From Escherichia coli (GTDB lineage: Bacteria > Pseudomonadota > Gammaproteobacteria > Enterobacterales > Enterobacteriaceae): DNA of 64,000 bases. Shown here piece after piece: positions 12,507-15,320 of this stretch. The notes beneath the pieces are model-generated. The model did not search any database. It worked only from the letters and a program-made list of their open reading frames with translations, and was not told the origin of the DNA. The DNA lies in NCBI RefSeq assembly GCF_003790525.1, contig NZ_CP033635.1, one strand, 5' to 3'. The position numbers were made by a program, and so were the translations under genes. Positions within the stretch are counted from its first letter, which is position 1; each line of letters starts with the position of its first letter.

Positions 12507-13280
12507 ATGTCCGAGAATAAATTAAACGTTATCGATTTGCACAAACGCTACGGCGAACACGAAGTGCTGAAAGGGGTTTCACTGCAAGCGAATGCCGGAG
12601 ATGTAATTAGCATCATCGGATCGTCGGGATCGGGGAAAAGTACCTTTCTGCGCTGCATTAACTTCCTCGAAAAACCGAGCGAAGGATCGATCGTGGTCAA
12701 TGGCCAGACGATCAATCTGGTGCGCGACAAAGATGGTCAACTCAAAGTCGCCGATAAAAATCAGCTGCGCTTACTGCGCACACGCCTGACGATGGTATTC
12801 CAGCACTTCAATCTCTGGAGCCATATGACGGTGCTGGAAAACGTCATGGAAGCGCCGATTCAGGTGTTGGGCCTGAGCAAGCAGGAAGCGCGCGAGCGGG
12901 CGGTGAAGTATCTGGCGAAAGTCGGGATAGACGAACGTGCGCAGGGGAAATATCCGGTGCATCTTTCCGGCGGTCAGCAACAGCGTGTTTCCATCGCAAG
13001 GGCGCTGGCAATGGAACCGGAAGTTTTACTGTTTGATGAACCTACCTCGGCGCTCGATCCTGAACTGGTAGGCGAAGTGTTGCGTATTATGCAGCAACTG
13101 GCAGAAGAGGGGAAAACCATGGTGGTGGTGACCCACGAAATGGGCTTTGCTCGCCATGTTTCTACTCACGTCATTTTTCTCCATCAGGGGAAAATAGAGG
13201 AAGAAGGCGCGCCGGAGCAGTTATTTGGCAACCCGCAAAGCCCTCGTCTGCAACAGTTCCTTAAGGGATCGCTGAAATAA
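12507..13280 (+). CDS. hisP: histidine ABC transporter ATP-binding protein
   Basis: 257-aa ORF with Walker [10 protein letters not shown] and ABC signature LSGGQQQR. Confidence 0.95.
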
Positions 13281-13286
13281 TTCCCC

Positions 13287-13316
13287 CTCCGGTAGCTAAC
13301 GCTGCCGGAGTATTTT
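13287..13316 (+). terminator. probable terminator after hisP
   Basis: CTCCGGTAGC...GCTGCCGGAG stem followed by TATTTT. Confidence 0.45.
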
Positions 13317-13476
13317 CAAGGGAAATTTGCGAGTCCGCTTCCGCTGAAATGTAAAAGTTGCAGCCCGCTAAAAATACTTCTGAATTCGCTGTCCAAAGAT
13401 AAAAACTGCCTGCTGCATTGGGTGTTAATCGTGGTTATTGTCGCGTCATCTTAAATTTGAGGGGTGACGGAACGCC

Positions 13477-14379
13477 ATGACAATATCGACAACTTCCACG
13501 CCGCATGATGCGGTATTTAAATCTTTTTTACGCCATCCAGACACCGCCCGGGATTTTATTGATATTCATCTCCCCGCGCCGCTGCGCAAACTGTGTGATT
13601 TAACGACGCTTAAACTGGAACCAAACAGTTTTATTGATGAAGACCTGCGGCAATATTATTCCGACCTCTTGTGGTCTGTGAAAACGCAGGAGGGAGCGGG
13701 TTATATTTATGTGGTGATAGAGCACCAAAGTAAGCCGGAAGAATTAATGGCTTTTCGCATGATGCGCTATTCCATTGCGGCGATGCAAAACCATCTTGAT
13801 GCAGGCTATAAAGAGCTTCCATTGGTGATCCCGATGCTGTTTTATCATGGTTGCAGAAGTCCTTATCCTTATTCACTCTGCTGGCTTGATGAATTTGCCG
13901 AGCCTGCTATAGCCCGCAAAATATATTCATCAGCTTTTCCGCTGGTGGATATTACCGTGGTGCCGGATGACGAGATTATGCAACATCGCAAAATGGCGCT
14001 GTTGGAGTTAATTCAGAAACATATTCGTCAGCGCGATCTGTTGGGATTAGTCGACCAAATTGTTTCGCTGCTAGTTACAGGAAACACTAATGACAGGCAG
14101 CTAAAAGCCCTGTTTAATTACGTATTACAAACGGGAGATGCCCAGCGTTTCCGTGCATTTATTGGTGAGATAGCGGAACGCGCACCACAAGAAAAGGAGA
14201 AACTGATGACTATTGCTGACAGATTACGTGAAGAAGGGCGGAATGATGGATTAATTCTGGGCAAACGCGAAGAAGCCCTGCGTATTGCTCAGGAGATGCT
14301 GGAGAGAGGTTTAGACAGAGAGTTAGTTATGATGGTGACCCGACTTTCACCAGACGATCTTATCGCGCAAAGCCACTAA
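13477..14379 (+). CDS. rpnB: recombination-promoting nuclease RpnB (YhgA-like, transposase_31 / PD-(D/E)XK family)
   Basis: 300-aa ORF recognised as YfcI/RpnB; N-terminal region has the D...E.Q.K-type nuclease motif (DLLWSV...VVIEHQSK). Confidence 0.8.
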
Positions 14380-14426
14380 TCCTGTAACACCGGGAGTTAA
14401 CTGGCGGATGTTTGCAGTAAACCACA

Positions 14427-15320
14427 TCAGCGAACAACATCCGCCAGCGCCTCTTCTAAATCGTACCAGCGAAACGCAAATCCCGCTTCTTCCAGCCGTT
14501 TAGGCAGCGCGCGTTGTCCACCTAATACCAGTACTGAAGATTCGCCCATTAACAGCCGAATGGCGGTTGCGGGGACGCGCAAAATAGCCGGGCGATGCAG
14601 CGCATGACCGAGCGCATGGGCAAATTGTTCATTGCGTACCGGGTAGGGCGAAACCATATTAAATGGCCCGCGCAGCTCGTTATCCAGCAGCCAGAGAATG
14701 CCGTTGACCATATCATCAATATGAATCCAGGCCAGATACTGCCGACCGGAACCAATCGGCCCGCCCAGGCCAAGACGAAACGGCGGCAGCATTTTACCGA
14801 GAATACCGCCATCCGGTGCCAGCACTACGCCGGTACGCAGCAGGCACACTCGCGTTTTGTCACTTTGTGCCCGACAGGCAATTTCTTCCCAGCGGGCGCA
14901 GAGTTTATGGGTAAATTCGTTATGCGGCGGTTCCTCTTCGGTAACCACCACTTCACCTAAGTCGCCATAATAGCCCGTTGCCGAGCCGGAAATGAGTACC
15001 GACGGTGGCGTGTCGCTGGCATTAATCAAATCGACCAGTTTTTGCGTGATATTCCAGCGGCTTTGGCAGAGACGCTCTTTTTGCTCGTGAGTCCAGCGTT
15101 TATCAGCAATCGGCTCTCCGGCCAGGTTGATTACCGCATCAAAGCCGTTGAGGTTACTTTGATCGGCAAGCCCTTGCCATAGTGTCACCCGAGGGCCGAG
15201 AACGGAACTGGCTTTCTGCGGGTTACGCGTCACTACCGTGATTTGATGGCCCAGATCCAGCAAACGCGGAATCAAATGGCGACCAATTAATCCCGTCCCT
15301 CCGGTGATCACTATCTTCAT
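14427..15320 (-). CDS. yfcH: epimerase family protein YfcH (NAD-dependent, SDR-like)
   Basis: 297-aa ORF with Rossmann motif ITGGTGLIG; recognised as YfcH. Confidence 0.85.

Follow-up and report, generated by a model that had tools for sequence, protein, structure and literature searches.

The rpnB gene of this Escherichia coli strain is best read as an intact gene-within-gene toxin–antitoxin module, fixed between hisP and yfcH, whose most likely role is phage defense; we put the probability of this reading at roughly 0.85. Its long product, RpnB_L, would be a DNA endonuclease of the PD-(D/E)XK fold with D63, E82 and Q84 as its active site, and if left unrestrained it is expected to cause DNA damage, SOS induction and cell death. 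Its short product, RpnB_S, would be translated in the same frame from an internal ATG at position 14206 of the window (the whole 64,000-nt stretch of DNA analyzed here) and would consist of the three-helix domain that also forms the C terminus of RpnB_L. By analogy with RpnA, RpnB_S would bind RpnB_L through this shared C-terminal domain and thereby block the nuclease, with the specificity of pairing presumably set by a four-residue repeat tract in the long first helix. The rise in RecA-independent recombination observed upon overexpression would be a by-product of DNA breakage, and the most likely physiological role would be a phage defense of the abortive-infection type.

The published support for these steps comes from several family members. 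For the K-12 allele, which is 98% identical to that of the window and carries two repeat units, it has been shown that the product is toxic, that RpnB_S exists and that RpnB_S acts as a specific antitoxin (PMC5350276; PMC10327210; PMC10400941). Mg-dependent endonuclease activity with little sequence specificity has been reported in vitro for RpnA only (PMC5350276; PMC10327210; PMC10400941), complex formation likewise for RpnA only (PMC10327210; PMC10400941), and anti-phage protection for the plasmid-encoded RpnP2 only (PMC10327210; PMC10400941). We infer a phage-defense role for RpnB itself by analogy. PADLOC returned no matching defense model for rpnB, and in the annotation of strain 165 its neighbors are housekeeping genes, with no defense-island context.

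Because all of our findings fit published work, the rpnB feature is one that is already known; it is not a new kind of system, nor does it open a long-standing question. The constraint on the toxin, the diversification of the antitoxin and dimerization segment, and the toxin-targeted loss described below agree with the published model and extend it modestly to chromosomal rpnB. The sole mildly new observations are a second mosaic patch and a set of toxin-dead, antitoxin-intact alleles at this locus; published work covers repeat variation, but neither of these.

Identity and setting of the locus

An ATG-initiated open reading frame in the program-made list coincides exactly with positions 13477..14379 of the plus strand and encodes 300 aa. 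The initial annotation had named it rpnB (yfcI), next to the hisJQMP operon, and three lines of evidence bear this out. First, alignment with the K-12 paralogues gives the window protein 98% identity to K-12 RpnB (b2305). Second, the order hisP-rpnB-yfcH is found in K-12, in strain 165 and in E. marmotae, where the genes run argT-hisJQMP-rpnB-yfcH-folX as they do here. Third, the RefSeq annotation on identical DNA reads “recombination-promoting nuclease RpnB.” Along its whole length the window aligns collinearly with positions 1567399-1631398 of E. coli strain 165 (NZ_CP020509.1), with one mismatch in 64,000 positions, and its rpnB allele is 100% identical to that of SMS-3-5. Its gene content is pdxB-usg-truA-dedA-accD-folC-dedD-cvpA-purF-ubiX-argT-hisJQMP-rpnB-yfcH ... 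nuoA-N ... menFDHBCE-pmrD-arnFETD. When positions 13281-14430 were used as a megablast query, 5,424 of 5,426 complete E. coli genomes gave matches, all of them chromosomal. Proteins of Salmonella (P0081) and Citrobacter koseri (P0079) with ~66–68% identity were considered as RpnB orthologues and rejected, because they are encoded at the rpnA and rpnD loci.

The terminator-like hairpin found just past the hisP stop codon (Table 1) sets an upstream boundary, so that rpnB probably forms its own transcription unit, separate from hisJQMP. Consensus scans detected no sigma-70-like site in the upstream intergenic region (13311..13476) and none upstream of the internal start at 14206. Four promoter-like sites around 13653-13707 were set aside because their number is near chance (four found, 1.9 ± 1.2 expected). 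Downstream, the stable hairpin between the convergent genes is probably a shared transcript-end structure for rpnB and yfcH; its plus strand is without a good T-run. In K-12, yfcH-rpnB is among the overlapping convergent transcript pairs known as “excludons” (PMC12288877). No Rfam family matched positions 13000-14700 when both strands were scanned.

Table 1. Coordinates of rpnB, its neighbors and the features discussed in the text (window positions)
Feature	Position	Strand	Basis and remarks
hisP	12507..13280	+	Upstream neighbor of rpnB, after hisQ and hisM
Terminator-like hairpin and T-run, just past the hisP stop	13287..13310	+	Consensus scan; 10-pair stem with 7 GC pairs; putative function
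rpnB upstream intergenic region	13311..13476	+	Ordinary diversity (π 0.024)
rpnB, full-length coding sequence (RpnB_L, 300 aa), predicted PD-(D/E)XK DNA endonuclease toxin	13477..14379	+	98% identity to K-12 RpnB; PF04754 and TIGR01784 matches; RefSeq name
Transposase_31 / YhgA-like domain, residues 8-209	13498..14103	+	PD-(D/E)XK core roughly residues 8-125
Codon D11	13507..13509	+	Invariant in paralogue alignment; D11 essential in RpnA
Site of the nonsense codon 18 (L18*) of allele L013	13528-13530		L013 1748-1750; exact 60-mer in 123 genomes
Codon D63 (GAC), catalytic Asp on strand β2	13663..13665	+	Alignment; RpnA-D63A is without DNA cleavage
Site of the nonsense codon 66 (W66*) of allele L014	13672-13674		L014 1886-1888; exact 60-mer in 64 genomes
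Codons E82-H83-Q84 (GAG CAC CAA)	13720..13728	+	Alignment; (D/E)-x-K position, with Q for K
Codon R94	13756..13758	+	Invariant in both alignments
Codons P163-D164-D165-E166	13963..13974	+	Alignment; PDDE motif outside the nuclease core
Perfect Shine-Dalgarno sequence AAGGAG for the internal start	14194..14199	+	Sequence; 6-nt spacer; same in 8/8 alleles compared
RpnB_S, in-frame internal gene, M244 to stop (57 aa), predicted cognate antitoxin and dimerization domain	14206..14379	+	Sequence, homology
Four-residue repeat tract, residues 254-265, 3 units	14236..14271	+	12-nt insertion relative to K-12, with clustered substitutions
Second mosaic patch in RpnB_S, about residues 276-287	14304..14335	+	Two discrete haplotypes
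Stable hairpin with perfect 12-bp inverted repeat, between convergent rpnB and yfcH	14401..14447		ΔG −27.1 kcal/mol, z −4.07; overlaps the yfcH stop
yfcH, 297 codons	14427..15320	−	Converges on rpnB

The nuclease and its active site

The assignment of RpnB to the PD-(D/E)XK nucleases, already made in the initial annotation, is upheld, and two family profiles match the protein well above their cutoffs. Residues 8-209 match Pfam PF04754 (Transposase_31, YhgA-like) over positions 1-202 of the 203 in the domain, with E = 2e-91 and 305 bits (cutoff 21), and the NCBIfam Rpn family model TIGR01784 scores 189 bits (cutoff 52). The score of RpnB on the NCBIfam RpnA equivalog model lies under the cutoff of that model. 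RpnB has the α-β-β-β-α-β core fold of PD-(D/E)XK enzymes.

To locate functional residues, the window protein was aligned with the intact K-12 paralogues RpnA, RpnB, RpnC and RpnE; K-12 rpnD was left out as a pseudogene. Identity is 67% to RpnA, 51% to RpnC and 65% to RpnE. Loss of catalytic residues, the finding that had been named as speaking for an inactive remnant, was looked for in this alignment, and every residue is there: D11, D63, E82, Q84, R94 and the PDDE motif at 163-166 are all in the window protein and aligned with those of RpnA, RpnC and RpnE. The weight of these residues is known from RpnA, in which D11A, D63A, E82A and Q84K each lost all phenotypes, R94A lost recombination activity, and D165A, within PDDE, was hyperactive (Kingston et al. 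2017, PMC5350276). The catalytic triad had been anticipated as D-E-K. Its first two members are present as D63 and E82, but the family motif is D-E-Q, with Q84 at the position of the lysine. Since the third motif residue is natively Q in the Rpn family, the absence of K in RpnB is not a loss.

A second gene within rpnB

Two things escaped the initial annotation: RpnB_S, the gene internal to rpnB (14206..14379), and how markedly this locus varies, and is lost, between strains. In K-12, all five rpn genes contain an internal translation start that yields a small C-terminal protein, RpnS, and a short rpnS transcript is supported by dRNA-seq data from that strain (Zhong et al. 2023, PMC10327210; PMC10400941). 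The corresponding start in the window is the in-frame ATG that encodes M244, which aligns with the mapped start of RpnA_S. Across 24 aligned family members, E241 and M244 are invariant, and the residue designated “D29” in K-12 RpnB_S lands on an Asp only if translation begins at M244. The match before the outer start codon at 13477 is a weak Shine-Dalgarno sequence only, an arrangement that would fit the reported excess of RpnS over RpnL. A phmmer comparison aligned residues 1-56 of RpnB_S with residues 1-48 of RpnA_S in PDB 7TH0 (E = 8e-4). Pfam PF27070 (HTH_Rpn_C) is recorded on close relatives, and an AF2 model shows residues 237-299 as helical, at low confidence.

Published experiments address the function of the internal product in K-12. 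RpnB_L is more toxic without RpnB_S, and the SOS induction that depends on RpnB_L is blocked by RpnB_S but not by RpnA_S (Zhong et al. 2023, PMC10327210; PMC10400941). Neither of the cross pairs, RpnA_S with RpnB_L or RpnB_S with RpnA_L, neutralizes (Zhong et al. 2023, PMC10327210; PMC10400941). RpnA_S and RpnA_L form a 2:2 complex in which DNA cleavage is blocked, and the structure of RpnA_S (PDB 7TH0) is a dimeric three-helix bundle (Zhong et al. 2023, PMC10327210; PMC10400941).

It is useful to set rpnB beside the systems that it resembles. RpnA (YhgA) with RpnA_S has the same D11, D63, E82, Q84, R94 and PDDE residues, the same internal initiation site at M244 and a homologous three-helix C-terminal domain; it differs in lying at the feoC-bioH locus and in having one four-residue unit. 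Plasmid RpnP2_LS belongs to the same family and has the same gene-within-gene architecture, but unlike RpnB it is plasmid-borne, and it protects against T-even phages and is the sole Rpn with demonstrated anti-phage activity (PMC10327210; PMC10400941). In classical type II toxin–antitoxin systems and in the PD-(D/E)XK defense nucleases Shedu SduA, HamA and McrC, a toxic nuclease is likewise curbed by a small helical partner, and the fold of the nuclease core is similar. However, rpnB has no sequence-level relationship to any of these systems, and its antitoxin is not a separate upstream gene but an in-frame internal product identical to the C terminus of the toxin.

Several other matches to RpnB_S were not accepted. 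Those to the Cas3 C-terminal domain, RecX and DEP (Pfam, PADLOC) had E values of 0.02–0.05 and fell below cutoffs. Residues 14-46 (window 14245-14340) resemble the designer pentatricopeptide-repeat consensus GK.EEAL.I..EM.E.G, and structures of designer pentatricopeptide-repeat proteins (5i9h, 5i9f, 6een) matched with E values down to 4e-30. We rejected homology here and judge the resemblance to be a repeat-summing artifact: the low E values result from the summing of 8–10 identical synthetic repeats that share a generic helical-hairpin pattern, and with the full-length query each pentatricopeptide-like stretch scored only 4–7 bits, with an i-Evalue above 30.

The broader lesson concerns annotation. 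A label such as “putative transposase” or “recombination-promoting nuclease” here covers a two-product toxin–antitoxin gene, and the convention of one protein per open reading frame hides the rpnB antitoxin.

Recombination as a probable side effect

The two products also bear on the alternative in which rpnB has a single product, a domesticated nuclease akin to transposases that serves the cell by promoting RecA-independent recombination and the acquisition of genes. K-12 RpnB is toxic and SOS-inducing, and in a conjugal assay RecA-independent recombination rose 19-fold when RpnB was overexpressed (PMC5350276). “Putative transposase” is also still the wording of the Pfam and TIGRFAM names. However, deletion of rpnA-D left the basal frequency and distribution of recombination unchanged (PMC5350276), which fits recombination being a side effect of DNA breaks, and the overexpression constructs had unknowingly co-expressed RpnS (PMC10327210; PMC10400941). 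A gene that yields two products with opposing activities (PMC10327210; PMC10400941) is at odds with the single-product element of this alternative, an autonomous transposase with this fold is not known (Zhong et al. 2023, PMC10327210; PMC10400941), and a role in promoting recombination leaves a diversification confined to the C-terminal 57 residues unexplained. We consider the alternative unlikely. The initial annotation's picture of rpnB as a domesticated, transposase-like gene of a recombination-promoting family reflects the 2017 view, since replaced by a toxin–antitoxin view in which these proteins are very unlikely to be transposases (Zhong et al. 2023).

Diversification of the antitoxin segment

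Diversity was assessed in six further alleles that span the identity range, taken with their flanks, together with K-12. The nuclease part of rpnB (codons 1-243) has π = 0.0195 and pN/pS = 0.061, close to hisP (π 0.022, pN/pS 0.020) and yfcH (π 0.018, pN/pS 0.079). By comparison, the RpnB_S part (codons 244-300) has π = 0.078, about four times that of the nuclease part, and pN/pS = 0.565. These sequence comparisons indicate strong purifying selection on the nuclease part, which is constrained like its housekeeping neighbors, and amino acid replacements are concentrated in RpnB_S. In K-12 RpnB (YfcI, b2305; Kingston et al. 2017, Zhong et al. 2023), the locus, the catalytic residues and the internal Shine-Dalgarno sequence with an ATG at codon 244 are the same, and the nuclease part differs at V74A and L118I. 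RpnB_S differs at H264R and D276E and in having three four-residue units instead of two, and the window protein has 300 aa against the 296 of K-12.

The four-residue repeat tract is the first variable patch. Its first residue is residue 11 of RpnB_S, which falls within the range of 8-20 given by Zhong et al., and its two units in K-12 are GAMQ-GKHE. The three-unit segment of the window occurs in 1,224 of the 5,426 genomes (about 23%); every occurrence is in rpnB, with none in other paralogues or on plasmids. Homologue lengths rise in steps of four residues (296, 300, 304 and up to 320 aa); these steps and the difference in unit number are the repeat variation described by Zhong et al. The second patch, at 14304-14335, occurs as either the haplotype shared by the window and K-12 or the EKGFDHEVILTL haplotype, with differences between the two at about 13 of 32 nt; the EKGFDHEVILTL substitutions were seen in alleles L013, L014 and L015. 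The pattern in both patches suggests exchanged segments and not gradual drift. At least three RpnB_S types were seen: two units with the window/K-12 patch, three units with that patch, and two units with EKGFDHEVILTL. In RpnC, the addition of one repeat to one partner alone abolished neutralization (Zhong et al. 2023, PMC10327210; PMC10400941). By analogy, the three-unit allele may represent a specificity type other than that of K-12, so that its toxin–antitoxin pair may not be interchangeable with the K-12 pair.

Toxin-dead alleles

Two of the six sampled alleles, L013 and L014, are annotated as pseudogenes. Their nonsense codons (Table 1), whose occurrence in complete E. coli genomes was counted by exact 60-mers centered on the stops, are independent, and both lie in the toxin part, leaving the RpnB_S reading frame and its Shine-Dalgarno sequence and ATG intact. 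When these alleles are added to the 670 deletions described below, the share of complete E. coli genomes without a functional RpnB_L comes to at least about 16%. The nonsense alleles could be orphan-antitoxin alleles or could simply reflect decay. A more elaborate proposal holds that the hisP-yfcH locus maintains balanced, discrete RpnB_S specificity types that are exchanged as short mosaic patches, and that the toxin-truncated alleles are retained as “orphan antitoxins” against incoming rpnB alleles or as targets or decoys of phage counter-defense; we regard it as doubtful.

Separately, the pseudogene rpnD of K-12 (L006 2999-3919) is interrupted by an in-frame stop, at codon 104 in its nuclease part, and its C-terminal region is still readable, the same pattern as in the rpnB nonsense alleles.

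The window copy of rpnB is itself intact. That it might nevertheless be an inactive remnant, a reading frame kept after its function has gone, is suggested by the dispensability of the gene, which has been repeatedly lost or truncated in other strains, and by the inactivity of one K-12 paralogue, RpnE (PMC5350276). Against this, all 300 codons are open, all of the functional residues and the internal start signals are present, the nuclease part matches the housekeeping neighbors in its low pN/pS, and the K-12 allele, at 98% identity, encodes one of the most toxic paralogues (PMC5350276). A remnant is therefore very unlikely, and we retain the reading of rpnB as an intact toxin–antitoxin gene.

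Absence of mobility and origin of the rpnB-less allele

Between 13181 and 14530, a search for repeats revealed neither terminal inverted repeats nor target duplications around rpnB above chance, in agreement with the initial annotation. The sole flanking pair has 14 nt at 79% identity, with one arm within yfcH; such short imperfect pairs are of chance quality, and none was accepted as marking element ends. Across the 5,426 complete E. coli genomes, rpnB is present as a single copy per genome, always chromosomal and at one locus. From pdxB to arnD, the annotation of strain 165 contains no other insertion sequence, transposase or integrase, which leaves rpnB, as had been noted, the sole mobile-element-like gene of the window. 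Zhong et al. (2023) likewise found rpn regions without terminal inverted repeats or target site duplications and with variable ends, and judged it very unlikely that Rpn proteins are transposases (PMC10327210; PMC10400941).

Some genomes have no rpnB. In ~680 genomes the megablast match is limited to the first 106 bases of the 13281-14430 query, and in strain Esc8 (L001, NZ_OZ369299.1) yfcH comes 158 bp after hisP and rpnB is missing. Full-length matches to a 130-nt junction probe occur in 670 of the 5,426 genomes (~12%), which identifies one shared rpnB deletion allele. By alignment, its junctions lie after 13386 and at 14401, the latter being the 5′ foot of the downstream hairpin; they match no repeat pair and are unrelated to the ends of rpnB. 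The allele keeps a remnant of ~23–27 nt from inside rpnB (window 13919-13945; L001 4106-4132). This remnant matches rpnB 13919-13941 at 20 of 23 positions, a score reached by 0 of 2,000 shuffles, and rpnB is a better match than any paralogue. The motif CTGG is present both at the end of the remnant and at the right junction. Because an rpnB-internal fragment is retained, the rpnB-less allele is a secondary deletion and not an unoccupied target site, and this rules out the view of these genomes as ancestral empty sites. The retained fragment also makes the loss in the 670 genomes a two-part or complex deletion.

The evidence thus supports the initial annotation's view of rpnB as a stand-alone host gene, fixed in place and not an active element. 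The name shared with the ISNCY/Transposase_31 insertion sequences is historical, and some paralogues are so annotated; unlike those elements, rpnB has no terminal inverted repeats, target site duplications, multiple copies or defined ends, and its locus is fixed. That rpnB is a current or recent autonomous ISNCY-like insertion sequence between hisP and yfcH, with the rpnB-less genomes as unoccupied sites, is extremely improbable, since the presence/absence polymorphism, a score of 465 bits on the NCBIfam “ISNCY family transposase” model (NF007418) and the description of rpn genes as horizontally mobile (Zhong et al. 2023, PMC10327210; PMC10400941) are set against an “empty” allele that carries a 23-nt rpnB fragment, junctions unrelated to the gene ends, a 583-bit equivalog cutoff that the NF007418 score does not reach, and one chromosomal copy per genome at the same locus, E. 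marmotae included.

Two minor observations concern other rpn genes. The transposase label lingers on genes that are not transposases, as some E. coli and Salmonella Rpn paralogues are named “ISNCY family transposase” (P0027, P0081). A P22 pac-like site has been described in one Salmonella rpn gene (PMC11260489), which is incidental to the rpnB discussed here.
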